Source: a virus (Duplodnaviria; Caudoviricetes). From it: DNA of 64,000 nt. Shown here one piece after another: positions 7,440 through 26,892 of the stretch (positions within the stretch are counted from its first letter, which is position 1; each line of letters begins with the position of its first letter). Both the position numbers and the translations under genes were made by a program. The stretch covers positions 19,751 to 83,750 of IMG/VR virus record IMGVR_UViG_3300033463_000073, one strand, 5' to 3'. The notes below the pieces were generated by a model. The model did no database searches, was not told the DNA's origin, and worked only from the letters and a program-made list of their open reading frames with translations.

Positions 7440-7612
7440 TTTCTTCTTACTTTTATCTTGAATGTGACGCCAGCATCCCTTGGAAGTTGTGCTTGCATTC
7501 TCGGATAGCGCGTAGTGTCAGGCTTCGACACCCTCGTAGCGTCGTTCTTGTGCTTTAGTTCAACGGATTTCTTAATCCTTATCTTCCCTCTCCTACGCTT
7601 TTTCCTTGCCAT
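7436..7612 (-). CDS. small basic protein
   Basis: Manual translation MARKKRRRGKIRIKKSVELK...KIKVRRK (58 aa); 4-nt overlap with next gene. Confidence 0.5.
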   Translation of the reverse strand: MARKKRRRGKIRIKKSVELKHKNDATRVSKPDTTRYPRMQAQLPRDAGVTFKIKVRRK

Positions 7613-7714
7613 AGATGATGTTCAAAACCTTGGAATACTGTTCTCTCGTAATCTCTGCACGTCCGTGCTCTCGTCCTGCGATGTACACGAACCCAATCTT
7701 ATCCTCATTCATAG

Positions 7715-7791
7715 TGGAACTGTCTGAGTCGAACAAGACGGACAGGCGATACCGCTCCTACATCCGCACCACCCAATGTGGCCACAGTCCC
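7715..7791 (-). ncRNA. tRNA-like element with alanine identity (G3.U70, A73), no canonical anticodon arm
   Basis: Acceptor GGGACTG/CAGTTCC+A, U8, D arm GCCAC-ATTGG-GTGGT, T loop TTCGACT. Confidence 0.55.
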
Positions 7792-7864
7792 GTAAAGAAT
7801 AGGCTACCGACTTGTCACAAGCACTCACCTAAAGTAATTTATTCAAAATATAAAAATAATGGAA

Positions 7865-7891
7865 AAAGGCTTACTTAACTTCACAGCCTTT
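7865..7891 (-). terminator. hairpin terminator after Met-like element
   Basis: AAAGGCT...AGCCTTT stem followed by T run. Confidence 0.5.
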
Positions 7892-7946
7892 CAGCTTACT
7901 GTTATCAATCTAAAACATTACATCATGAAAAACCTGTATTTTGTTG

Positions 7947-8017
7947 TTGCGGTAGTGGAACCTGCCTCCCACCTCAAGGATATGAACCTCGTATGCGACT
8001 GTCACACTGCTACCGCG
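7947..8017 (-). tRNA. degenerate tRNA-Met(CAT)-like element
   Basis: Acceptor GCGGTAG/CTACCGC, anticodon arm CGAGG-TTCATAT-CCTTG; T loop lacks TTC. Confidence 0.55.
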
Positions 8018-8093
8018 ATGTGGAAAAGCCTACTAACTTGTCTCAAGCTCTCGGCTTAACAATAATCTAATACCATGAAATCTTAGTGACATG

Positions 8094-8101
8094 CAAAGAT
8101 A
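8094..8101 (-). promoter_or_regulatory. Bacteroidota -7 promoter driving the tRNA-like cluster
   Basis: TATCTTTG followed by CA. Confidence 0.7.
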
Positions 8102-8145
8102 CCACAATATTTTGAATATTGCAAGTTTCTTAGCAAGATTTAACG

Positions 8146-8475
8146 TTATTCTTCGTCTTCGCCGCTTCCTCTGAGCCTTTCGTTTAGCCGCTTAATCTGC
8201 TTCTTCATGTTCTTAATCTGATTCGAAAGTGCCTCGTTCTCCTTCTGTGCTTCGACGAGCGCTTTCACAGTCTCGCCGTTGTCTTTCCATACTACGGACG
8301 CTGTCAGGAACTCGCGCATGGTCTCCGCGTCGATGGCTGCGAGCTCTTCAAGACCGACGTGGTACATGAATCCTTCGAGCAGCGCTGGCAGCGTGTAGTA
8401 CATGTATTCGTTGTTGCCGACCTTCAGCACATGGCCGTTCGGCACAGGATAGACATTAATCTTTGTTCTTTCCAT
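8146..8475 (-). CDS. hypothetical protein with C-terminal coiled coil
   Basis: 109 aa ORF. Confidence 0.6.
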   Translation of the reverse strand: MERTKINVYPVPNGHVLKVGNNEYMYYTLPALLEGFMYHVGLEELAAIDAETMREFLTASVVWKDNGETVKALVEAQKENEALSNQIKNMKKQIKRLNERLRGSGEDEE

Positions 8476-8480
8476 AGCCC

Positions 8481-8714
8481 TTACTTTTCAATTACTTCGT
8501 TTAACTGGTCGATGATGTCGTCGAGGCTATTGACAGCATCGTCAATCCCGTCGACACACTCCTGCATCGTATCACCGCGCTCTGAGTACTGTATGCCTTC
8601 TGGCAGATTGTCAAAAGCCTCCTGCTCTTCGTCGCGGATGTCTTCCAACTCGCTCTTGATGTCCTCAAGCTTCTCAATGCACTTCTCTATTTTCTGTCTC
8701 CTATTCTTATTCAT
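8481..8714 (-). CDS. coiled-coil phage hypothetical protein
   Basis: EEQEAFDNLPEGIQYSERG motif; likely start MNKNRRQ with leader motif. Confidence 0.65.
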   Translation of the reverse strand: MNKNRRQKIEKCIEKLEDIKSELEDIRDEEQEAFDNLPEGIQYSERGDTMQECVDGIDDAVNSLDDIIDQLNEVIEK

Positions 8715-8743
8715 AATCAATGTTTTTTTAATTGTCAATACTG

Positions 8744-9133
8744 TTAGTCAATAAACATATCAAACTCTACCGTCTTGGATGCGATTCCCCACATGACTGG
8801 CTTCTTGGAGAACCTGTAGGTGACGTTTCTTGTCTTCTTGTCCTTGTCAGGATAGATGAAGTACCCTGCGTCTTGGAATGCCTTGAACGCGGCGTCCATC
8901 TCGCACGAGTTGATTCTCGTGTATTCGCATCCGACGTTGCGCTCCGAATGCGAGATGGTCTTGTACCCTCCGTTGACGGTTATGCTCAGATACAGGGCGT
9001 TGTCTTTCGCGAAGACGGTCATCGGAAGCGACTTCTCCGTATAGTCGAGCATTATGTCGCAGATGCTCTGTACCACAAACTCCCTCACTTCAATTGGCTG
9101 AACGTAGTCGTTCTTCTTGATTCTGATGTTCAT
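8744..9133 (-). CDS. hypothetical protein
   Basis: 129 aa ORF. Confidence 0.6.
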   Translation of the reverse strand: MNIRIKKNDYVQPIEVREFVVQSICDIMLDYTEKSLPMTVFAKDNALYLSITVNGGYKTISHSERNVGCEYTRINSCEMDAAFKAFQDAGYFIYPDKDKKTRNVTYRFSKKPVMWGIASKTVEFDMFID

Positions 9134-9136
9134 AAT

Positions 9137-9364
9137 CTACTTGTTGTTTAAATAATACTTTGCGTACGATTTCTCGCCGTCGTTCACTCTCTCCGTGACG
9201 ATGTCCATACCGTCGTTTCGAAGCCTGTTAATCGCTGCGGCCAGACGGAAACAGCCCCATCTCTGAAGCGCTTCGATTGGTGTAATACTGTTCCCGTTCT
9301 CAAGCCATGCCTTAATCTGTGCCTTCTGTGTGGCGCTTCTCTCTGGATTCCAATTCTCGTTCAT
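9137..9364 (-). CDS. winged HTH protein (HTH_39-like)
   Basis: ITPIEALQRWGCFRLAAAINRLRNDGMDIVT pattern. Confidence 0.7.
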   Translation of the reverse strand: MNENWNPERSATQKAQIKAWLENGNSITPIEALQRWGCFRLAAAINRLRNDGMDIVTERVNDGEKSYAKYYLNNK

Positions 9365-9376
9365 GATTCGATGTTC

Positions 9377-9673
9377 TTATAAGTTAGACAAATCAATAGT
9401 CTCTGTTCTTGTGAACGTAATCTTTCCGTCGTATCCGCGACGCTTCAGCTCTTCCATCAGCTCTCTCGGCGTGAAGTCCTGAAGTCTGAGGCTGCGTGCG
9501 TTGACGGCGTCGACGGCCTGCTGCTTCAGCTTCTTGCGATTCTCGACGCCCTCCTTGATTTTCTGTGAGTGGCACTCCTTGCATACGCTTGTGACACCCC
9601 ATGCGTTCTTTACAAACTCGTCTTCAGGCAACTCGCGCCCGCAAATCTTACAAACTTTTGTCGTTGTTTCCAT
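9377..9673 (-). CDS. zinc-finger protein
   Basis: CKICG...CKECH (CxxC-x~17-CxxC); likely start METTTK. Confidence 0.55.
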   Translation of the reverse strand: METTTKVCKICGRELPEDEFVKNAWGVTSVCKECHSQKIKEGVENRKKLKQQAVDAVNARSLRLQDFTPRELMEELKRRGYDGKITFTRTETIDLSNL

Positions 9674-9739
9674 AATTCTCTTGTTTTTAGTTGTTAATAA
9701 CTGATTGCCGACCACCCACCCTCGCGTTGATAGTGAACG

Positions 9740-9823
9740 CTACTTCTTGAACCCTCGCCCTCCCATCGTGATGAAGATGTCAGGACGAACGATGAACGTA
9801 AGAATGATAAGCAATGTAATCAT
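9740..9823 (-). CDS. small hydrophobic peptide
   Basis: MITLLIILTFIVRPDIFITMGGRGFKK (27 aa, manual). Confidence 0.4.
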   Translation of the reverse strand: MITLLIILTFIVRPDIFITMGGRGFKK

Positions 9824-9835
9824 ACGCAGTACTAT

Positions 9836-10639
9836 TTAGTTGTTAGACGAATAATTCTCTATGCTCTTCTTGAACTGCTGCATGTGCGCTCGCAGACGCT
9901 TCTGGAGCACTGGCGACTTGAAGTCCCACTTCGCGAATATGCTCTCGTCTATGTCGTGGTACTTCTTCATGACTTCCACGACTTCTTCCAAGCGCCCGCA
10001 TCTCAGTCTGATTCCCATCCAGTCCCACTTCTTGAAGTCTTCGTCCTCGCAGTGGTCTGGAAACACTTCTTTCAACACTTTCAAGAAGCACTGCGATTCT
10101 CGCGCTTCAATATATCGCTTATTCTTCAGCTTTCCTTTATCCATATATATCTGTTTAAGTTTCTCTTTGTCTGTCCTTGCTCTCGTCTCTTTGTACTTGT
10201 CTGACGAAGCACCTAAGCGAGCACCGTTCTTCTTTTTCACAGCCAGTGCGTCCTTCGTCCTCTTTGAAATCATCTCCCTCTCATACTGCGCAACAGAAGC
10301 GAAGACTCCGAGTATCATGGAATTGACAACTGGCATATCCGTAAAATGAATGTCGATGCCAGTGTTGATTACTTTGAACGTAAACTCGACGTCTCTTGCC
10401 AATCTGTCCAGTTTCGCAATGACAAGGCCGCATCTGTTCGACTTGCAGTAGTCGATGGCATCCCACAATCCTTTTCTGTCTCTGTGAGTGCCGCTCTCGA
10501 CGTCCATGAACTCGTGTACTAACACTCCGTTCTTCTGCGCAATGAAGTTCTCGCACATCGTTCTTTGTGCGGATATTCCAAGACCTTTCGCGCCTTGACG
10601 CTGAGTTGAAACTCTTAAATACGTGCAGTAGTTGTTCAT
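9836..10639 (-). CDS. serine recombinase (resolvase/invertase family)
   Basis: YLRVST, ESG-x-x-x-DR, AKLDRLAR, AQYEREMISKRTKDALA motifs. Confidence 0.9.
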   Translation of the reverse strand: MNNYCTYLRVSTQRQGAKGLGISAQRTMCENFIAQKNGVLVHEFMDVESGTHRDRKGLWDAIDYCKSNRCGLVIAKLDRLARDVEFTFKVINTGIDIHFTDMPVVNSMILGVFASVAQYEREMISKRTKDALAVKKKNGARLGASSDKYKETRARTDKEKLKQIYMDKGKLKNKRYIEARESQCFLKVLKEVFPDHCEDEDFKKWDWMGIRLRCGRLEEVVEVMKKYHDIDESIFAKWDFKSPVLQKRLRAHMQQFKKSIENYSSNN

Positions 10640-10666
10640 AACTCATGATGTTTTAAATTGACTCTG

Positions 10667-10674
10667 CAAAGTTA
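10667..10674 (-). promoter_or_regulatory. -7 promoter upstream of serine recombinase
   Basis: TAACTTTG followed by CA. Confidence 0.65.
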
Positions 10675-11442
10675 CTTTAAATATTTAAACCTTGCAAGCT
10701 TTTTAACACTTTTAACTTTAGTAAACATCAATCACCTTTGCTCCTACATACGCATCTGCGGTACGTGCGTGGTAGAACGGCTCGTCGCGCACCTTCTTGA
10801 TGGCGAGCAGTCTTGCCTGTTCCTCGCTCTCTGCCTCGACATAGATGGTTTTTGAAAGCGTGATGTCGATAGACACGCTGTACTCTGTTGTCTTCATAAT
10901 GTTTGTTGTTTTAATTGTTTTATGGTGTTACTCCTTAATGCTTGTTCTGAGACAAGCAGTAGTCGTAAAGAAGATGAATGTTGTCAGTCTTGTACTTTCT
11001 GACGAATCTCTTGACGATAGCCATGTCAATCGTCACATACCCGTATCGCTCGTTGAACTCTTCGAGCATTCTGTCATAGTCGTATTTCTTTCTTGTCATA
11101 CTTTCGCATAGTTCGTCAAATCGTTTACAAATGCTGAGTAGAATCCGTCCTCTGCATGGAACACGGCGCGAGAGAAGAACCGAGTGTACTCACCGACTTT
11201 CGATTCCGAAAACCACTTCCATATATCCTCGCACTGGTTGAGCAAAAACGTCTCTCCTCTGAAAACCATTGTATTCATAGTTCTGTTATCAGCTACTTTG
11301 TTTATTGTTCAATACTCCAAGAGTCTGCCGACCAACCGACAAGACCGTTTGTATAACCATTCTCTATTTGCTCTGCAACCTCTCTGCAAGCATCTGCTGC
11401 GTTGTCGATGTCGCTTACTTCAATTACAATCTGTGCCATACT

Positions 11443-11790
11443 TCACTTCTTCTTTGGTTCTTTGTAATATACATTCACTTTGTATCCGCTCTTGGCCATC
11501 GGCATGATGAGCTGGCGGGCTTCCTTGTAGTAGACGTTGAGCTTGACGCTTACCACGTCAGTTCCAAGCAGCGTGTGGTCTGATGAGTTCTTGATGACAC
11601 GCTTCGCATGGTCGATGTCACACAGGAAGTTCCACAGCTGAGCCATCTTCTGACCATCCTCCTGTCGATAGTGATAGATGAATGCACACAGCGCGTTGGC
11701 TGGATGAATCTTTACTGTGAGCACTTTTGTCTCGTCGTGGTTCTTAACTTTGACTTCTCCGTATGAAATCTGATAGTTTACTCTTAGCAT
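11443..11790 (-). CDS. hypothetical protein
   Basis: 115 aa ORF. Confidence 0.6.
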   Translation of the reverse strand: MLRVNYQISYGEVKVKNHDETKVLTVKIHPANALCAFIYHYRQEDGQKMAQLWNFLCDIDHAKRVIKNSSDHTLLGTDVVSVKLNVYYKEARQLIMPMAKSGYKVNVYYKEPKKK

Positions 11791-11802
11791 AATTATGATT
11801 TT

Positions 11803-12168
11803 TTAAAGTGAATCAAACTCCTGTTCCATGTAGTTGTTGTCCTTGTCCATCCAACCATGCGTGAACATGATTGTCATGTTGTAGTCGCACACTTTGTCAG
11901 CCTCAATCTTTGCAATCACGAGAGGATAGCCAAGACCTTTGCATTGTTCGATGCAGTGTTCCTTAAATCCGCTCTCAGTACCCATCTCTCTAATAGCAAT
12001 GTAGTAAGGCTCTTTAAGACCAGTCCATGACTTGTCGTGAAGGTCTGACAACGAGTGAACCATGTCCGATGTTACTAACCTGTAACCGCACACCGCAGAC
12101 ACACCGAGTGCTGCCTGCATAAGAATCTCGCTGATTTGCGAGAAGTGAATTTGATTGTAAGTTCTCAT
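11803..12168 (-). CDS. hypothetical protein
   Basis: 121 aa ORF with leader motif. Confidence 0.6.
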   Translation of the reverse strand: MRTYNQIHFSQISEILMQAALGVSAVCGYRLVTSDMVHSLSDLHDKSWTGLKEPYYIAIREMGTESGFKEHCIEQCKGLGYPLVIAKIEADKVCDYNMTIMFTHGWMDKDNNYMEQEFDSL

Positions 12169-12187
12169 AATGATAATGTTTTAATTG

Positions 12188-13090
12188 TTACTCTTCGATT
12201 AATTCTTCCTTCTTGAACCCTGCTTCACAAAGTATATACTCTTCGTTCTTTGAAAGCTCTCCATAGAATCCCCAGCATGAATCAGTCTCTTCCCACTCGG
12301 TCTCTTCTGTCTCAGTGTCGTCATGCTCTCCGTCAGGATAGCGCACACTCTTGATGGTCTTCACGGCTTTCTCTGCCTTGAATCCGTACACCTCGTTGTC
12401 TCCCAATGCCTCAAGCTCGTCTATCAGCCACTCAATCTCTCGAAGCGTCTTGCCTTTCCAATATTTTTCTTCGCAGCCAGAGTACTTCAGGAACTCGTCC
12501 TTCTCCAACCAACAGATTCCCTCTGAATCGCAAGTAACTTCCTCGCTGAAGGAAATTCCGCTATAATAGCCGAATGAGTAAGACATCATCTTGATACCAT
12601 CAGTCATTGCATTCGCTACAAGGTGGTCGATAGTTTCGGTATTTAGATATTCTATGATTGAATCTACATCAATGTCTTCTAACTTGAGAGAGAATGAAGT
12701 GTCTTCACCCCAGTGTGCCTCATGTACTACTTTCTGTCCGTCCGTCCATGCAGGAATCCAAGAACCCACTACCCATTCCTTGTTTGAACGGTCATAGAAC
12801 AAAGCAGTATCGTGATACTTATGTACGTTGCTCTTGTAGTTGTCCTTGAGAATTTTGATGATTTTCTTTTTATCACCATACATCTCCAACATATAACAGA
12901 GGAAGTTGTATGCACTGCCTGATTTGTTCTCACGCTCCTGTTTTCCCATTAACGAGCCATCTCTTGACCAGTCCTCGCAGTGCAGTGGCTCGTCGGTGTT
13001 GTCGCGAGGGTTCTCTGCATACTCGTCACGATATATCGTCACCCTCTGTTTTCCGTCTTTTGTGACGTATCTTTTTACATAGTCTTCCAT
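12188..13090 (-). CDS. acidic hypothetical early protein
   Basis: 300 aa, strongly acidic, C-terminal DSCWGFYG. Confidence 0.7.
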   Translation of the reverse strand: MEDYVKRYVTKDGKQRVTIYRDEYAENPRDNTDEPLHCEDWSRDGSLMGKQERENKSGSAYNFLCYMLEMYGDKKKIIKILKDNYKSNVHKYHDTALFYDRSNKEWVVGSWIPAWTDGQKVVHEAHWGEDTSFSLKLEDIDVDSIIEYLNTETIDHLVANAMTDGIKMMSYSFGYYSGISFSEEVTCDSEGICWLEKDEFLKYSGCEEKYWKGKTLREIEWLIDELEALGDNEVYGFKAEKAVKTIKSVRYPDGEHDDTETEETEWEETDSCWGFYGELSKNEEYILCEAGFKKEELIEE

Positions 13091-13134
13091 AATATATATG
13101 CTTTTATTAATTATTTATATATTAATTATTTTCT

Positions 13135-13230
13135 CTACGCGTACGCGACGCAAAGGAAAGCCCATGTGAGCACCAAGAAGATGATGCAGCACACGAGCCC
13201 TCCGACAAACTCCCAATCAATCTTCCTCAT
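13135..13230 (-). CDS. small hydrophobic peptide
   Basis: MRKIDWEFVGGLVCCIIFLVLTWAFLCVAYA (31 aa, manual). Confidence 0.45.
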   Translation of the reverse strand: MRKIDWEFVGGLVCCIIFLVLTWAFLCVAYA

Positions 13231-13231
13231 A

Positions 13232-13801
13232 TCACTTGAATCTCTTTTCATGTTTCTTGTCTATGATTACCCACTTGTCGTAGGTCTTTCCGTCAGCAAC
13301 ATGGCGCATGTTGTAACCGAGCCAGTCCATGATGCGAGGATAGCAGGACATACCGACACCGCCCTCGAAGTAGCAGTACGTGTAGTCGCTTTTGTAAATG
13401 CCGTAAGGAGCTTTCTTGAAGTTCTTGTTGCGAACTGCATAGCGTAGGTTCTTGAAGTGGTTCAGGGCTTCTGCAACAACTGTAGAGTGCTTGTCGTAGC
13501 CCCATCCGCTTGCGTACCCTGCGTTCTCAATATAGTGCCAGTCACCTTTTGCATCTTCCCACCGCATAGATGCGCGAGGACACCAGCCCCAAGTGTGTGA
13601 ACGCTTCCACTCGACCTCAATCTCGATGTAGATTGGAAGTGGCTTGTTGTGCTTAAACTCTTCAGATGCGTTAGTTCGCTCCAAGTACTTCAGAAGGCCA
13701 CGCTCGGTCTTGTAGTCGTTGGCACGGCTTGCAATCTCTTTCTTTGTCAGATGTGTGAACGTTTTCGCGAACTCGTTCAAACGCTTCTTCGTAAGTTCCA
13801 T
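13232..13801 (-). CDS. hypothetical early protein
   Basis: 189 aa; ASGWGYDKHST motif. Confidence 0.65.
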   Translation of the reverse strand: MELTKKRLNEFAKTFTHLTKKEIASRANDYKTERGLLKYLERTNASEEFKHNKPLPIYIEIEVEWKRSHTWGWCPRASMRWEDAKGDWHYIENAGYASGWGYDKHSTVVAEALNHFKNLRYAVRNKNFKKAPYGIYKSDYTYCYFEGGVGMSCYPRIMDWLGYNMRHVADGKTYDKWVIIDKKHEKRFK

Positions 13802-13820
13802 AATGCTAAATGTTTAAAGA

Positions 13821-14099
13821 TTAATACTGAATATCTTTCTCGTACATAAGAATTTCTTCGTAGTAGTCGTCGCAAGGGTCTGTAATAAAGAAACGTCCGC
13901 CTCCTTCGTCTTCGACCTCGAACATTTCTTCTCGTTCTTCTTTTGTGTAACCTCCGAAGTGATAGCTTTCTTTTAATATTGTGTCAATTACTTGCTCAAA
14001 CACTTGTTTTGCAGTCTCTTTGCATGAGCATGGTGTGACGTTAAACAAAATCTCTCCGTCGCAGTTGCTCTCTTGTGTTACCAACCAAATCTTTTCCAT
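13821..14099 (-). CDS. hypothetical protein
   Basis: 92 aa acidic ORF. Confidence 0.55.
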   Translation of the reverse strand: MEKIWLVTQESNCDGEILFNVTPCSCKETAKQVFEQVIDTILKESYHFGGYTKEEREEMFEVEDEGGGRFFITDPCDDYYEEILMYEKDIQY

Positions 14100-14102
14100 A
14101 GT

Positions 14103-14327
14103 TCAATCGTTGTAGTAAAACTTCTTAATACCATAATACGCTCTCAATGTTTGGCATATTCCGTCGCACTGAGCAAGAGTGACATCATAGTTGTCTCTGA
14201 TGTAGTCTGTAAAGAACTCGTAGGCGGAAGAGTTTCCCTTTGGTACTCCTTTCCACTCACCAAGATTCTTTATAATATCTTCACATATACGTCCTGCATT
14301 GTGAATTGGTTCTTTTACCCATCCCAT
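14103..14327 (-). CDS. hypothetical protein
   Basis: 74 aa ORF in packed operon. Confidence 0.5.
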   Translation of the reverse strand: MGWVKEPIHNAGRICEDIIKNLGEWKGVPKGNSSAYEFFTDYIRDNYDVTLAQCDGICQTLRAYYGIKKFYYND

Positions 14328-14329
14328 AG

Positions 14330-14566
14330 TTACCAGTTTCTCTCGTCGTTTACAATCTCTCCAATCATATTCTCAAGGGTGAGGTAGTACTCAAGTCCCT
14401 CGTTTACACAGAGTCCGTCGTGGCGCAACTTGCGCAGCTTGCGGATGGCTCTCTCGGTCACGTTGAAGCGGCCACGGATTGGCCACAAGTGACTCTCGTC
14501 ATTCTTACGGAAGTAGGCGTTAATCTGTCTGATGGACATTTCGCTTACGTTGGATGGCTCATTCAT
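14330..14566 (-). CDS. hypothetical protein
   Basis: 78 aa ORF. Confidence 0.5.
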   Translation of the reverse strand: MNEPSNVSEMSIRQINAYFRKNDESHLWPIRGRFNVTERAIRKLRKLRHDGLCVNEGLEYYLTLENMIGEIVNDERNW

Positions 14567-14577
14567 GACGCTTTAAT

Positions 14578-14844
14578 TTAGAGGTCAATAGCCAGATAAT
14601 TGCCGCCACGCTGACCTGTGCGTCTGTTGTAGATGTCAACAATACGGGCGTTCTCGTAGCCAAGACTCCTACAATACCTTGCCAAGTCTTCAGCGTAACT
14701 TCTGTTAAAACTTGTGGTGTAGGCCGTACAATGACGCTCACCGCGCTTAATCTGTTTCTCGATAACGTCAAGCACTTTTTCCCGTGCTGATTCTGACGGT
14801 ACGAACTCTTTTGTGTACTGTTTTGCTTCTGATGCTGTAATCAT
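14578..14844 (-). CDS. hypothetical protein
   Basis: 88 aa ORF with leader motif. Confidence 0.55.
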   Translation of the reverse strand: MITASEAKQYTKEFVPSESAREKVLDVIEKQIKRGERHCTAYTTSFNRSYAEDLARYCRSLGYENARIVDIYNRRTGQRGGNYLAIDL

Positions 14845-14868
14845 AATGCTAAATGTTTTATGTTAATA

Positions 14869-15387
14869 CTAAAGTTTTTCTATCTTTAAGTAAAACGGTT
14901 TAATGCTGCCAGAATGCCATCTTACGTCTGTTATGTTAAACATTGTCTCGTCGTTAGACATTTCTGTTATTGTTAATTTTGAATACTTGTTTGCTTCTTT
15001 GTATTTACTAAGCGTATAATTTATTGTTTTCTTATTTAATTCTATCCCTGACAAAGCAAGAAGTGCAAATTGCTTTCCGATATTATAAACATTGTCATAG
15101 GTGGGAAGAAAGTGAGGTTCAAAAATATTGCACATCATATCTTCTTCGTAGCATCCGCTAAATTTGTATTTGCCAGCAACAATGTAATAATCTTCTGTTT
15201 TTTTATTTTGAGAGTAATGCGTTTTCTTTAAGTATTTCAATACATGTGTTATGTCGCAATGGCCATTTTTGATTGTTGTTGTTGTTTCTTTTGGGTATTC
15301 GGACATGAGTTTTTCGTATTCAATACACTTATCTTCGGATTCAAAAAGCCTTCCGTTAAAAGCCTTGTATGCAATTATTTGTTTCAT
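14869..15387 (-). CDS. AT-rich hypothetical protein
   Basis: 172 aa, visibly more AT-rich than neighbours. Confidence 0.6.
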   Translation of the reverse strand: MKQIIAYKAFNGRLFESEDKCIEYEKLMSEYPKETTTTIKNGHCDITHVLKYLKKTHYSQNKKTEDYYIVAGKYKFSGCYEEDMMCNIFEPHFLPTYDNVYNIGKQFALLALSGIELNKKTINYTLSKYKEANKYSKLTITEMSNDETMFNITDVRWHSGSIKPFYLKIEKL

Positions 15388-15450
15388 AATTTGTTTTTTA
15401 ATTAATACTAAAGTTAATTATCTTTGTCGTCGCCTAATGTTTAAAAATTG

Positions 15451-15481
15451 CCTGTGGATGATGAGCACCACCACCCACAGG
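15451..15481 (-). terminator. hairpin terminator after amber/Leu-like element
   Basis: CCTGTGGGTGGTG...CATCATCCACAGG stem followed by CAATTTTT. Confidence 0.5.
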
Positions 15482-15519
15482 ACTTAAAGCATCAATCTAA
15501 AACATTAAGCAAACATATT

Positions 15520-15587
15520 GAAGCGGCGAGGGAATCGAACCCTCAGCCACAACCTTTAGAGTTGCTTAGTCGCCATGACCACCGCGC
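15520..15587 (-). tRNA. atypical short tRNA-like gene, anticodon CTA (amber) or TAA depending on register
   Basis: Perfect T arm GAGGG-TTCGATT-CCCTC, D arm GGTC-ATGGC-GACT, anticodon region GCAA-CTCTAAAGG-TTGT, weak acceptor GCGCGGT/GCCGCTT. Confidence 0.55.
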
Positions 15588-15596
15588 GTCGATAGT

Positions 15597-15668
15597 GAAT
15601 CAGATTCCGAGCGACACAATCTCGTTGTACATTCTCTCCATTTCAGCATACGCAATCTTGTGACAGCT
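15597..15668 (-). repeat. diverged duplicate of the 3' end of ORF 15883-17688
   Basis: Encodes CHKIAYAEMERMYNEIVSLGI* versus CHDIAYAEMERMYNEIVELENNEA*; mostly synonymous differences. Confidence 0.8.
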
Positions 15669-15692
15669 TGCCGATGTTATAACCTTTGTACT

Positions 15693-15902
15693 TCATATCT
15701 TTACTTCAATAGGTGAATTTTCCCAAGTTATGTCTTTTCTTGTGTCATATTCAAAAAAGAAAGGGAGTGGCGCATAATCGAACTTTGCTTCCAAATCTTC
15801 CCACTCTCCAAACTCTTCGTCACGCAACGGCTTTCCTAAATAGCCGTACAAATGTCCGTCTTTACTTCTTGCTAACCACATACTACGCCTCGTTATTTTC
15901 AA
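15693..15902 (-). CDS. small hypothetical protein (ARS/ARD-x-DG family)
   Basis: WLARSKDGHLYGYLGKP resembles ORF 3773-3976; AT-rich. Confidence 0.55.
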   Translation of the reverse strand: MKITRRSMWLARSKDGHLYGYLGKPLRDEEFGEWEDLEAKFDYAPLPFFFEYDTRKDITWENSPIEVKI

Positions 15903-17688
15903 GTTCTACAATCTCGTTGTACATTCTCTCCATCTCTGCGTATGCGATGTCGTGACAGCCTGCGGTCAGAATGTCGTTCTTGTACCCACTGACTGTGTAC
16001 GTGCCGTTGCCCTTCGTGTTCCACTCCATCGGCTTGAACGACTTCGGGTCGTCGTGCCACTGCTTGACCTTCTTGAACCACAACTTTGCAACCGCAACAG
16101 GAACACGCACGTTCTTGCTCGACTCCACATACGTCTTGTCGAGGTTGAGTCTGAGAAGCACGTTACCGCCATAGTAGAACACATTCTTGCTCGCTGCTTC
16201 TGATTCTGCATCGTAGATGTCAGTGAGGTGCAGTCGCCACAAGTCGCGGAAGCCCTCGATGCCACGCTCGATGCATGCATCAATCTGCTCCTGCTTGACT
16301 TGCTTCTTATACTCTTCCTCTCGCTTTCTCTCCTCTGCCTGACGCTGGCGCTCAATCTCCATTGCACGTTTGCGGGCTTCCTTGTCTGCATAGTGCTTGT
16401 CCTGTCTCTCGATGAACCACGACACAAGGGCGAACTCTTTGTCTGTTGTCAACATTCTCAGATGTGCATCATTCAGATAGATGTCGTCGTCATAAGAGTG
16501 CTTTTTCTCTTTCGTATTCGCTTTTGCCATCTTGAGGATGGAGATTGCCTTGCGGTTGTCCTGCACCTCTTTGCACTTTGCATAGAATCCTGCAATCCAC
16601 TGCTCCTTGTCTTCGCTCTTGCGGAATCCGTCATAGTCAAATTCAACGCGTGTGTCGCACCAGTAGAAGCCGTAGATGTATTCGCCGCTGAGGTCGTATT
16701 CCTCGCCAGTGTACATATTGCGGCACGTCAAGACCATGTCGCTGTATGACTTTCCATGCCACGAGGAATTTTCTTGCGGGTTGCAGCCGACAATCCACCT
16801 GTATGCATTCCACTTGTTCTTCTCGTACTTCTTCTTGCGCTCGTCCTCGTGCTTGCGCCACTCCTTGTGTGCAAGAACTTTGAAATGCAACTCAACACGC
16901 TCCTTTGCAGTGAGCTTACGGATGCCGTCGGCACTCATTTCGTGGCTCATCATGCCTCTGTACCCTCTATACGACACATACGGACTGCCGATGCCGAGAC
17001 GCTTGCACAGGCTTTCCATCTGAATCCTCTTGTCTTCTGACTTGCGGTAGCGTGCGCAGTAGTCGTAGTACTTCTTGTATGTGCCTTGTCCGAATGCAGC
17101 ATCTACGAGCACACGCACTTCTCTCTCGCCCTTGTACAAAGCCTTGACGATAATCTTCTTCCGTTTCCATGTGCCATCCGTGTCGATACGCTTCTTCTTG
17201 AGCCACTTTGGTACAGTTGTGTCCTTGTACATGGAACATAGTTTCTCCACGTACGCCCAATACTCTTCGATGATTCGCTCTGCGTTTTTGTCGAGGTCTT
17301 TCTGCTTGCCGTCGACCATTGCATTGAGAGCGTCGTATATCTCACCAACCCAATAGTCCATGAGTCTCACACGTGCATCGTAGTTAAACTCACCCCAGCC
17401 GAGCAAGTCGCAGCCCTGATAAGTATAGTATCCGCCATGACCATCCTCGTAAGGGAATAGTGTAACGTCCTTCGGGAAGCTGCTCTGCCACAGCTTATGC
17501 CCGTTAGACGTGATGCTTGTATTTCCATGATACACGATGCAGACCTTCTCGTCCACCCACTGGCCGAAGACAGTCGAATAGCTGTAGTAGTTGCGCCCCT
17601 CGATGTGTACACTTGAACCTTTCAGTCCTTTCTCAAAATTGTAGTCTCTGTTGGCGAATCTGTGCGCCACTGTTCCGTTGCTTGCCAT
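15883..17688 (-). CDS. large early hypothetical protein
   Basis: 601 aa, Lys/Tyr/Trp-rich, with a coiled-coil segment. Confidence 0.75.
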   Translation of the reverse strand: MASNGTVAHRFANRDYNFEKGLKGSSVHIEGRNYYSYSTVFGQWVDEKVCIVYHGNTSITSNGHKLWQSSFPKDVTLFPYEDGHGGYYTYQGCDLLGWGEFNYDARVRLMDYWVGEIYDALNAMVDGKQKDLDKNAERIIEEYWAYVEKLCSMYKDTTVPKWLKKKRIDTDGTWKRKKIIVKALYKGEREVRVLVDAAFGQGTYKKYYDYCARYRKSEDKRIQMESLCKRLGIGSPYVSYRGYRGMMSHEMSADGIRKLTAKERVELHFKVLAHKEWRKHEDERKKKYEKNKWNAYRWIVGCNPQENSSWHGKSYSDMVLTCRNMYTGEEYDLSGEYIYGFYWCDTRVEFDYDGFRKSEDKEQWIAGFYAKCKEVQDNRKAISILKMAKANTKEKKHSYDDDIYLNDAHLRMLTTDKEFALVSWFIERQDKHYADKEARKRAMEIERQRQAEERKREEEYKKQVKQEQIDACIERGIEGFRDLWRLHLTDIYDAESEAASKNVFYYGGNVLLRLNLDKTYVESSKNVRVPVAVAKLWFKKVKQWHDDPKSFKPMEWNTKGNGTYTVSGYKNDILTAGCHDIAYAEMERMYNEIVELENNEA

Positions 17689-17726
17689 AATGTTTTAATG
17701 TTTTTAATTGTTAATACTGTTTGTTG

Positions 17727-18199: not shown

Positions 18200-18532
18200 A
18201 ATGATGATGTTTTAATTGTTTATTGATGTCTGTCAGCGTGGCGGGCGTGTCGATAGTGGCTGCGCCCACCTTCTGCCGTTTACTGTATGTCCATGTATGC
18301 AATACCGTTCCCTCTCCCGCTTACGACGCAAAGAAGGTGGTTCTTTAACACATACCTCATAATTTCCTCGTGGTCTGTAGAAAACATCAGGGTAAACTCA
18401 ACATCCATGCAGTATGCGTTATAGGCGAATTTATCCACCCTGCACACGTATTTTCTGTTGTGACACTTGTTCTTCTCGTTGAGCCGTCTGAAGAGTGACT
18501 TCAGCTCTTTCAATTGCTTGTTTGTCATAATG

Positions 18533-19510: not shown

Positions 19511-20018
19511 ATTTATGCCTCCTCTATTACTATGTGATGATACTTGAATCCGTACTTGCGCAGGCTGAACTCCAGCTCAAGCGCCTCTCTCTGTGCCTTC
19601 TCGATGCTTTTGCAGATGGTCGGGCAGAAGCCTCTCAGACAATAGCCCCTTGCGTCTGCTGGATATACACGTGTCCTCATATTTCGCCCTCCTATAACTT
19701 TATTACTTCTGCACGCTCGTTGTGCATGCGCATCTGCACGCACAAATCGTCACACACCTGCTTTGTGTCTTGGAACAACACGACGCCTGCGACGACGACA
19801 GCCCACAACACGATGCTCTTAGGGCAGTAAGGCGTACCAACCTTTACTGCGCCCTGCTTCTTAATCCTTTGTCTCATAATGCTTTTTGTTTTAAATTGTT
19901 TGCTACCCAAAAAGGTGGGCACACGTATGCACCCACCTGTCTGACGCACTATGCCTAAAGCCTGTTTATGCACGCATAGTCGTGCCTGTGCAATTTTCTC
20001 GCATGGTTACGCACCTGC

Positions 20019-20414
20019 TTACTTTGCGGCCTCGATGCTCTGTGCGAGCACCTGAAACACCTTGCGAGGAGTCCACGATGTCACCTTGCGCAGCACGGGA
20101 ATCTGCACCTCTTTGTCGCTTGCATCCTTCTGCTTCTTCATGCCCCAGATACCCACGTAGTCGTTGCCCTTCTTATCCGTGCCGTGCAGATTCTTATGCA
20201 CCTTCTCGAAGAACGCTGCTGGAGTCAGCTTTTCTGCATCCACGTCCACACCAACGGCTGCGAATACTTCTCTGTAGCCTGCTTTGAGAAGCTGGCTGCG
20301 CTGAATATCCTTTAGCACGCTGCTGATGCTGCGATACTCTTTGTCTGCACTACGCATAGAACCTGCTACGCCCTTTAATAACTCACTTGCATTGTTGATA
20401 AAATCGTACTTCAT
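20019..20414 (-). CDS. first gene of early arm, hypothetical
   Basis: 131 aa, strong leader motif. Confidence 0.65.
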   Translation of the reverse strand: MKYDFINNASELLKGVAGSMRSADKEYRSISSVLKDIQRSQLLKAGYREVFAAVGVDVDAEKLTPAAFFEKVHKNLHGTDKKGNDYVGIWGMKKQKDASDKEVQIPVLRKVTSWTPRKVFQVLAQSIEAAK

Positions 20415-20429
20415 AATTGTAATGTTTTA

Positions 20430-20945
20430 AATTTCTGCGATATTGCATTGTAAGCGCATAGGAATTGAACCTATTATGACGACACAATGTGCCTGCATAG
20501 CAAACCTGCGCACCCTTTGTTAGTGCCACCTTTGTTTTTCCCATTTCGGTACTCTTTTCGTCAATGTTAAGTGCCCATGTGTACTTTCGTACGGGCACAA
20601 AATAGCACAATACTTTTTTGCTGTCTCCGCCGTGGTGCACCGCATTTCGCTGCTCTTCCACTTTCTTTGCCCCTGATTCGGGTTACAAAGTGCCCACGCC
20701 TACTTTGCTATGGAATGCATTTCGACCCCGTCACTGAAATGTCAGCTCACACCACGGCTTATAATAAGCCCATTCTTTGAGTTGCGGGCAACCCTATAGT
20801 AATTGACGTTTACTATATCAGCGTACAGACGTATTTTTTCAATTTCTGTTACCAAGCCCCGTCTGTCGGCTCTGAGTCTGTCGCCTATTTCAGGCACTCA
20901 ATTTAGTTGTTTATCTTCTATCTGTTTCGTATTATTTAATTTTCT
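20430..20945 (-). ncRNA. candidate large structured ncRNA/5' leader ending in a tRNA-like T arm
   Basis: 9-bp long-range helix 20629-20637/20750-20758, several GAAA-capped stems, T arm ATAGG-TTCAATT-CCTAT (20458-20474). Confidence 0.5.
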
Positions 20946-26815: not shown

Positions 26816-26892
26816 TCATAAAAATGCATAAAATGTTTGGAACATGAGCGGATAATTAGTATCTTTGCACACAGAAATCGTTTTCCACGGGT

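Follow-up and report, generated by a model that had tools for sequence, protein, structure and literature searches.

Why does a phage carry the same 17 nucleotides (nt) twice, each time between a transfer RNA (tRNA)-related element and a hairpin, and each time antisense to the leader of its own leftward genes? The question concerns a 64,000-nt stretch of a Caudoviricetes virus, here called the window, which is the right-hand 64 kilobases (kb) of the 83,750-base IMG/VR record IMGVR_UViG_3300033463_000073; the record is rated complete by CheckV. The sequence ATCAATCTAAAACATTA was found exactly at 7904-7920 (locus 1) and 15491-15507 (locus 2) on the plus strand, as an earlier reading of the letters alone (the sequence-only reading) had claimed, and no third exact copy was found in the 83.7-kb genome. 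On the minus strand each copy lies 3' of the tRNA-related element and 5' of the hairpin, and is antisense to the leader sequence TAAAACATTA of leftward genes. Tentatively, and with a little less than even confidence, we read the 17-mer as the exposed seed of minus-strand small RNAs (sRNAs) that would lower translation of the phage's own block of leader-sharing genes. The first copy (7904-7920, minus strand) stands inside an RNA unit of a tRNA operon, below called unit 2, and the second (15491-15507, minus strand, UAAUGUUUUAGAUUGAU) is the unpaired segment of the RNA module at locus 2. The seed includes the segment UGUUUUAG.

About 15 minus-strand genes between 4.6 and 20.4 kb have a common leader of the approximate form AGTATTAAC-AATTAAAACAT-N4-7-ATTATG. 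With up to three mismatches allowed, five matches to the 17-mer were obtained against 0.27 expected, a number that none of 100 shuffles gave, and the three matches besides the exact copies were minus-strand leaders at 10646, 17696 and 20420. The word TAAAACAT occurs nine times in the 83.7-kb genome: seven times in leaders of leftward genes, at -16 to -9 (gene starts 20414, 18199, 17688, 14844, 12168, 10639 and 4641), and twice as the complement of a seed. In front of the gene 11803-12168 (leader 12169-12187, minus strand) the motif CAAUUAAAACAUUAUCAUU makes up the entire 19-nt spacer between stop and start, and we therefore regard it as a translation-initiation element and not as a promoter.

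Searching IMG/VR with the exact 17-mer returned 25 matches, all in unrelated contigs and none indicating kinship. Among 185,579 bacterial genomes the seed pattern gave five random-looking matches without the hairpin or similar flanks, no host copy or prophage was found, and GenBank phages gave no match with megablast or at blastn sensitivity. Elsewhere in the genome, TGTATCTTTGCAAC boxes of the Bacteroidota -7 promoter type stand at 26858, 43726 and 63654 (plus strand). They precede rightward operons, that of the terminase among them, and the host polymerase thus appears to transcribe much of the genome.

An invariant segment in diverged RNA modules

Relatives were collected with the 601-amino-acid (aa) gene beside locus 2 as query, which gave two viral and 17 metagenomic ones, and with a seed-based DNA pattern, which gave five more viral contigs. 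The seed comparison drew on about 15 related phage contigs; G001 is an 81-kb relative. Directly downstream of the 601-aa gene, on the gene-sense strand, ATGTTTTAGATTGAT recurred in modules of two types, A and B, in at least 12 contigs. This core (AUGUUUUAGAUUGAU; ATGTTTTAGATTGAT) was the sole block of at least 10 nt invariant between the two types, with one exception, a T deleted in G001. The types differ in their 5' domain and their terminator, and the adjacent 601-aa protein is 51-78% identical between those phages. In type A (the window, G001, L056, L057 and L058) a core of about 150 nt is identical save for the deletion in G001, and the flanks have diverged. Type B (L064, L066, L068 and L073-L077) has another 5' domain and another terminator hairpin with the same seed. 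In type C (L067) the head motif is followed by a T-arm-like hairpin with a swapped stem, and the seed region resembles that of unit 2 of the window, without AGAUUGAU. Each seed copy at a module is followed by a hairpin and a U run 6-10 nt further on, on the gene-sense strand. The mean predicted unpaired probability of the seed was 0.46 in type A; in type B it was 0.61-0.86, compared with 0.34-0.43 in the rest of the RNA. An invariant exposed segment, combined with hairpins that covary or are replaced and with a strand-specific terminator, would carry the usual marks of the seed of a base-pairing, trans-acting sRNA.

In the module at locus 2 (15444-15599, minus strand, type A) the head motif TTCACTATCGAC is followed by a structured 5' domain that contains a T-arm-like hairpin, and then by the seed and an intrinsic terminator. 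Its fold had a z-score of -3.0, and the architecture of types B and C is homologous to it. The terminator (15451-15481, minus strand) has 14 pairs and the tail CAATTTTTAA and is the best terminator-like site between 7000 and 21200. Between types A and C its stem shows two compensatory replacements of U-A by C-G and one pair altered to G.U, and in type B its place is taken by an unrelated hairpin with a U run behind it. The hairpin GAGGG-UUCGAUU-CCCUC (15528-15544, minus strand) was the only match to models of tRNA or transfer-messenger RNA at locus 2, and the match covered the T arm alone. Type C has this stem exchanged for GGGAGG/CCUCCC and matches the 3' part of the tRNA-Sec model with 17.3 bits; type B has CAC-UUUGAUG-UGG at the same place. 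In the element 15587-15520, which the sequence-only reading had called tRNA-like, the tRNA features are limited to a T arm of canonical form (15544-15528) and a short acceptor-like stem. It has no convincing D or anticodon arm, and no cloverleaf register was found with both U33 and a stem of 5 base pairs (bp). An attP-type fragment of a host tRNA was considered as the origin of the near-identity at locus 2; the covariation of T-arm stem and terminator in type C and their replacement in type B argue against a fixed host sequence.

Two further elements of the module were inspected. The head motif (GCG)TTCACTATCNAC(G)CGG stands at 18258, 15597, 11673, 9735 and 7107, always on the minus strand and often as the loop of a GC-rich hairpin. 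TTCACTATCNAC opens every seed module in the relatives and has four further occurrences in the window on the same strand. Its reading as a T7-type promoter (TTCACTATC) was dropped, since the genome gave no match to the single-subunit RNA polymerase family, a weak argument because the search was silent in control genomes too. The second element, TATGTTTG (15510-15517, minus strand), as read from the sequence, fits the Bacteroidota -7 promoter box TAnnTTTG and lies 2 nt upstream of the seed. It is confined to type A; type B keeps just TTTGC, at a spacing of 0-3 nt, and a dedicated promoter of the seed is therefore uncertain.

The same architecture could belong to a cis-acting element of the transcript or the DNA. 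The seed might then contribute to a terminator or an attenuator, direct RNase processing or RNA stability behind tRNA-like structures, bind a protein, or, as a segment of the 3'-untranslated region (3'-UTR), fold back onto the 5' leader of the same mRNA of the 601-aa gene, and its complementarity to other leaders would be incidental. Such a role would agree with the fixed short distance at which the seed always precedes the terminator, directly after the 601-aa gene or a tRNA, with the second conserved motif (TTCACTATCNAC) that opens the modules and recurs elsewhere in the block, and with the failure to find covariation between seed and target. We consider it unlikely, because terminators need no specific 15-nt sequence upstream and three unrelated terminator hairpins follow the same seed. 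Moreover, the identical 17-mer stands in two different transcript contexts, and its match spans the complete leader motif of many genes.

Beside module 2 the 3' end of the 601-aa gene is duplicated (15616-15671 and 15908-15963, 86% identity). The duplicated gene end is a recombination scar, and the module came in together with a G001-like gene end. Between the two ends (15693-15881) a short open reading frame (ORF) starts like the MKYKGYNIGK gene of the relative G002. Pfam and PHROG scans of the neighbouring proteins, including that of the 601-aa gene, assigned no function.

Could the repeat be a functionless relic, left by mosaic recombination joints or consisting of inverted leader fragments carried along with mobile tRNA or noncoding RNA cassettes? 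The block is highly mosaic, the duplicated gene end with its 86% identity lies next to module 2, and type A modules may have spread recently. Against this stands a 15-nt island that has stayed the same in spite of the divergence of 5' domain, terminator and neighbouring genes, and the block of unit 2 has been kept between the window and G001 despite the diverged bodies of the neighbouring tRNAs. A relic is in our view very unlikely.

Predicted pairing with the shared leaders

A perfect 10-nt match at the gene starts 12168, 17688 and 20414 had been claimed by the sequence-only reading, and TAAAACATTA was found in all three leaders. The long pairing that it described between the trailer at locus 1 and the start of gene 20414, across the AUG, was likewise reproduced, with RNAduplex energies of -23 to -25 kcal/mol. 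The leader of this gene (20019-20414; leader 20415-20440, minus strand) is the best predicted partner of unit 2, with about 25 bp including G.U pairs and one bulge. The leader of the serine recombinase gene (10640-10662, minus strand, GUCAAUUUAAAACAUCA) offers 14 contiguous pairs with the seed, one G.U included. The leader of the 601-aa gene (17689-17723, minus strand), also a predicted target, ends in UUAAAACAUUA directly before the AUG.

When start regions were compared with control windows from coding sequences, 11 of the 127 passed the 1% tail with unit 2 (1.3 expected) and five of the 127 with the seed of locus 2. Against the leader of the adjacent 601-aa gene the seed beat shuffled seeds in 8/8 contigs scored (z -2.2 to -5.5; fraction of shuffles reaching the observed energy 0-0.026), and in type B the predicted duplex with this leader extended up to about 21 bp with a 2-nt bulge. 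The 14-bp match UCAAUUUAAAACAU was present in one start region each of G000, G001, L058 and L064, in different genes, in the window that of the serine recombinase. The seed of unit 2 has a G/A difference between the window and G001, and this base faces a U of the UCAAUUUAAAACAU leaders, so that a G.U pair is swapped for A-U.

The copies might also be inverted leader motifs working on the plus strand, either as the start region of a small ORF or as the origin of antisense transcripts that run into the 3' end of the 601-aa gene or the tRNA-like element. The sequence does resemble a complete leader. Behind the copy at locus 1 stands CATC-ATG-AAA, which is conserved in G001, and in the window a plus-strand TATCTTTG box lies upstream of copy 2. 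The ORF, offered as an alternative by the sequence-only reading, is not conserved, being 44 aa long in the window and 6 aa in G001. That reading had correctly stated that the second copy has no ATG behind it on the plus strand, and most copies of the locus-2 type in relatives, such as those of L066, L068, L073 and L077, are without ATG as well. The TATCTTTG box near copy 2 was found in the window only and is lost in all relatives. On these grounds the small-ORF leader and the plus-strand promoter were both rejected. Additionally, the C of AATCTAAAAC, which the seeds keep, is in no genuine leader of the window, the U runs of the adjacent hairpins are on the minus strand only, and the leader motif, which fills 19-nt stop-to-start spacers, is a translation signal and not a promoter. 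Function on the plus strand is thus highly improbable.

A different kind of leader was noticed at the starts 19232, 19510, 19680 and 4432 (minus strand), which have GGAGG-type Shine-Dalgarno leaders instead of the shared A-rich one and cluster by a Pistol ribozyme; this suggests cassettes of different origin or under different control. The Pistol self-cleaving ribozyme (19901-19985, minus strand; 48.8 bits against a gathering score of 34.5) lies within the leftward block just upstream of the gene 19692-19877, and its P3 hairpin was also flagged as terminator-like.

The tRNA operon at locus 1

The operon starts from a promoter of the Bacteroidota sigma-ABfr-like type (8094-8125, minus strand), made up of CTTG, 20 nt and TATCTTTG. 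The metagenome contig L057, with 97% identity to the window across locus 1, has exactly this block, and G001 has nearly the same one. The conserved Bacteroidota-type promoter points to a Bacteroidota host, and the carrier is most likely an uncultured gut or rumen Bacteroidota phage.

Element A (7947-8017, minus strand) is a decayed gene derived from tRNA-Met(CAU), with remodelled D and T arms, and is orthologous to a tRNA-Met(CAT) that ARAGORN called in G001. It retains a cloverleaf with the anticodon loop UUCAUAU; across G000, G002 and G001 the anticodon stem shows compensatory changes and the CAU loop is kept. The T loop GGCAGG and the 3-nt D loop are noncanonical. ARAGORN found 0 tRNA genes in the window and in the whole genome, and the Rfam tRNA model RF00005 gave no match at E<=10 at either locus. 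We therefore do not class either element as a tRNA gene. What is left of the two tRNA-like genes of the sequence-only reading is a decayed tRNA-Met gene in a tRNA operon at locus 1, and only a T-arm minihelix at locus 2.

Unit 2 (7850-7937, minus strand) is made up of the FopS-like 5' stretch GGUUUUUCAUG, the 17-mer seed, the hairpin 7891-7865 and a U run. Lying downstream of the conserved host-type promoter and of element A, its position is that of a tRNA-operon spacer or 3' trailer. The block TTTCATGATG(n)AATGTTTTA(G/A)ATTGA has been kept between the window or L057 and G001 despite diverged flanking tRNA bodies, and in G001 the seed of unit 2 lies in the spacer between tRNA-Met and tRNA-Trp, both called by ARAGORN, without a terminator of its own. 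The hairpin of the window (AAAGGCT/AGCCTTT, then TTCC) belongs to an insertion of 69 nt and has diverged from the GNRA-capped hairpin found before each tRNA-like gene, of which it is a copy. Its loop of 12-13 nt excludes it from the terminator scan, and it is missing in G001. Thus, of the two terminators that the sequence-only reading proposed, the one at 15481-15451 proved to be the top terminator-like site, and the one at locus 1 exists as a hairpin outside the scan. Release from a tRNA scaffold, as proposed there, is compatible with the operon-spacer placement at locus 1 and is not general, because type B has the same seed behind a non-tRNA 5' domain. In the modules downstream of the 601-aa gene the seed and the terminator stay together, and the tRNA part, a T-arm minihelix at locus 2, is absent in type B.

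The last gene of the operon, element B (7715-7791, minus strand), is tRNA-shaped with an expanded anticodon arm (16-nt loop region). At its place L057 has a tRNA-Ala(TGC) and G001 an odd 82-nt tRNA-Trp(CCA) with a 9-nt loop. In L057 (10388-10700) the normal tRNA-Ala is followed by a tRNA-like gene with a long insert, and a stretch of L032 (1788-1869) is also tRNA-shaped with an odd anticodon arm. These cases suggest that the tRNAs of this phage group are recurrently remodelled. One hairpin stands before each tRNA-like gene (8026-8056, 7801-7830 and 7865-7891, minus strand), with a GNRA loop and an internal loop of the GAG/AGUA type, and the inner stem of the GNRA hairpin covaries among G000, L057, G001 and G002 (GCTTG..CAAGT, GCCC..GGGT, GCTC..GAGT and GCGTT..AATGT). 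A conserved 39-aa ORF (MNEDKIGFVYIAG..., 7593-7712, minus strand), also present in G001 and L057, has its start within the 3' end of element B. The locus records tRNA genes decaying to structured, non-decoding RNAs that may serve as processing handles.

Resemblance to FopS RNAs

In FopS sRNAs, a family of paralogues, a single-stranded seed at the 5' end is combined with a terminator; by pairing with susC-type messenger RNAs (mRNAs) at their start region they block translation (PMC11697453). FopS/GibS therefore provide a working precedent in Bacteroides thetaiotaomicron, a member of the likely host phylum, for blocking translation via pairing at the start region, and a FopS sequence was noted in one phage by the same authors (PMC11697453). 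Over the whole genome the Rfam FopS model RF04319 gave exactly two matches, adjacent and on the same strand. One was unit 2 (7850-7935; 16.8 bits, E=0.2) and the other a second unit (8021-8082; 12-14.3 bits); the gathering score is 56, and by Rfam's rule neither unit is a member of FopS. Out of 4227 Rfam families FopS took the first rank over 8010-8100; over 7840-7950 it came second by bit score. Locus 2, G001, G002 and type C gave no match to the model, and membership of locus 2 and type C in FopS was accordingly rejected.

The second unit, unit 1 (8021-8086, minus strand), is a FopS-like leader RNA of the tRNA operon with the seed UUUCAUGGUAUUAGAU at 8080-8065 and a hairpin at 8056-8026, and as the neighbouring unit stands 90 nt upstream. 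Its seed matches the Bacteroides FopS seed consensus at 16/16 positions. The TATCTTTGCA box precedes bacterial FopS genes as it does unit 1, and in a sample of 401 Bacteroidota genomes we found multicopy genes in which a TAnnTTTG box, in the same position as in the window, precedes the exact FopS seed. Unit 1 has a promoter; its hairpin, with only four U, runs straight into the tRNA-like gene, and the unit has no separate poly-U terminator. Unit 2 has GUUUUUCAUG and UAGAUU in common with FopS, and in a hand alignment about 11/17 positions of the 17-mer were identical to the FopS seed. Between the core of the phage seed, GUUUUAGAUU, and that of FopS, GUAUUAGAUU, there is a one-base difference, which completes the complementarity to the leader core AAU(C/U)UAAAAC. 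Predicted pairing with the phage leaders amounted to -6 to -13 kcal/mol for host FopS and unit 1, and to -13 to -20 kcal/mol for intact 17-mer seeds.

The resemblance raises the possibility that the RNAs are real sRNAs whose main targets are host mRNAs. They would be phage copies or variants of FopS/GibS that reprogramme outer-membrane or polysaccharide-utilisation genes, and the likeness to the phage leaders would reflect the generally A-rich starts of Bacteroidota genes. For unit 1, with its exact FopS seed, no complementary site was found in the phage beyond its own gene, and any target of unit 1 would therefore be in the host. Unit 2 and type C retain the FopS-like GUUUUUCAU, antisense to the AUG-AAAAA starts typical of exported proteins, and the earlier sighting of FopS in a phage points the same way. 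The 17-mer seeds, on the other hand, match an extended, phage-specific leader over 14-21 bp, beyond mere A-richness, and pair well with phage leaders, whereas host FopS and unit 1 do so poorly. A mainly host-directed role for the 17-mer seems fairly improbable to us.

Proposed mechanism

The 17-mer has a core that is invariant across diverged modules, is predicted to be unpaired and is placed before a covarying terminator, without a conserved ORF on the opposite strand, and for these reasons we read it as an sRNA seed. That it belongs to a base-pairing sRNA appears somewhat probable from sequence comparison; that this sRNA is aimed at the phage's own leaders is possible, at rather less than an even chance. 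The sRNA proposed by the sequence-only reading is in this respect supported by the comparison, as a conserved single-stranded segment before a minus-strand terminator with complementarity to many leftward-gene leaders.

In the proposed mechanism the seed would be made from two genes, unit 2 (about 7937-7850) in the spacer or trailer of the tRNA operon and the module of about 150 nt (15599-15444) after the 601-aa gene. Termination together with cuts by RNase P, Z or E at the tRNA-like parts might release the RNAs; alternatively, they might arise from the mRNA of the 601-aa gene as a fragment of its 3'-UTR. The seed and its flanks would then pair in trans with the A-rich leader without Shine-Dalgarno sequence (AGUAUUAAC..UUAAAACAUUA, about -34 to -1) of at least seven genes of the leftward block, between 4.6 and 20.4 kb, whose label as early genes in the sequence-only reading is an assumption. 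Such pairing would mask the region where Bacteroidota ribosomes load and would lower translation of the block, as FopS/GibS do on susC-type mRNAs.

Several observations weigh against this mechanism. Leader complementarity prompted the finding, and the enrichment tests in the window are therefore partly circular. Lineage-specific covariation between seed and leader was looked for and not found; with leaders of type B the seeds of type A pair just as strongly or more so. The minimum-energy fold of type A has part of the seed paired to bases upstream of it, and the near-identity of this type could partly be explained by recent recombinational exchange. The locus-2 seed of G001 is short of one U, and the seed of L067 (type C), without AGAUUGAU, paired with its own leader no better than shuffles did (p=0.07). 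Co-occurrence of seeds and leaders is imperfect as well, L065 having TAAAACAT leaders and no seed within the 16.5 kb covered; the absence of both seed modules and TAAAACAT leaders from G002 fits co-occurrence as a single case.

A wider form of the proposal, which we consider rather unlikely, is that a FopS-type design of the host has been turned on the phage's own genome. One seed, produced from two differently built genes, would act as a master off-switch for the block through the leader common to a dozen genes, with the unit carrying the FopS seed hitting host genes simultaneously. If true, it would show how phages borrow and retarget host sRNAs, one RNA retaining the host seed and two having a seed adapted to the leader shared by the phage's own genes. 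Control of translation in Bacteroidota, which works without Shine-Dalgarno pairing, is so far barely understood, and FopS/GibS are the first worked-out sRNAs there. The pair of seed and leader could be a compact basis for translational switches in gut Bacteroides and Prevotella.

Comparison with known systems

The kind of mechanism is known from FopS/GibS, from tRNA-spacer sRNAs and from the phage RNAs c4 and CI; a phage-borne variant directed against the phage's own leader is not described in the literature searched. Closest are FopS/GibS, RNAs of about 65-70 nt with a single-stranded seed followed by an intrinsic terminator, multicopy and with one member derived from a 3'-UTR, which pair at or next to the start codon of mRNAs without Shine-Dalgarno sequence and block initiation; FopS RNAs are also bound by RbpB. 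The phage units differ in that they are not free-standing, being inside a tRNA operon or behind a structured domain of about 90 nt, and in that their predicted targets are the phage's own leaders and not susC genes.

In Escherichia coli the 3' external transcribed spacer of leuZ and the internal transcribed spacer of metZ-metW-metV are spacer or trailer RNAs of tRNA operons that sponge other sRNAs. The seed of unit 2 has a similar place in the trailer or spacer of a tRNA operon, from which ordinary tRNA processing would free it. The E. coli RNAs, unlike the action proposed here, do not act on start regions, and the tRNAs flanking the seed in the window have decayed.

Phage-encoded small RNAs that act on genes of their own phage are also known. 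The immunity antisense RNAs c4 of P1 and P7 and CI of P4 are cut from a longer transcript with the help of RNase P, and act in trans on repeated complementary sites including the ribosome-binding region of their own phage genes. They bear no likeness to the phage units in sequence or structure; they have one or two target sites and not a leader shared by many genes, and their hosts are enterobacteria with Shine-Dalgarno-dependent initiation. A coordinated shut-off of many phage mRNAs via a common feature of their start regions is brought about by RegA of phage T4. RegA is a protein, whereas the effector proposed here is an RNA, and if the proposed mechanism is true the RNAs of this phage would correspond, on the RNA side, to protein shut-off factors of the RegA kind.

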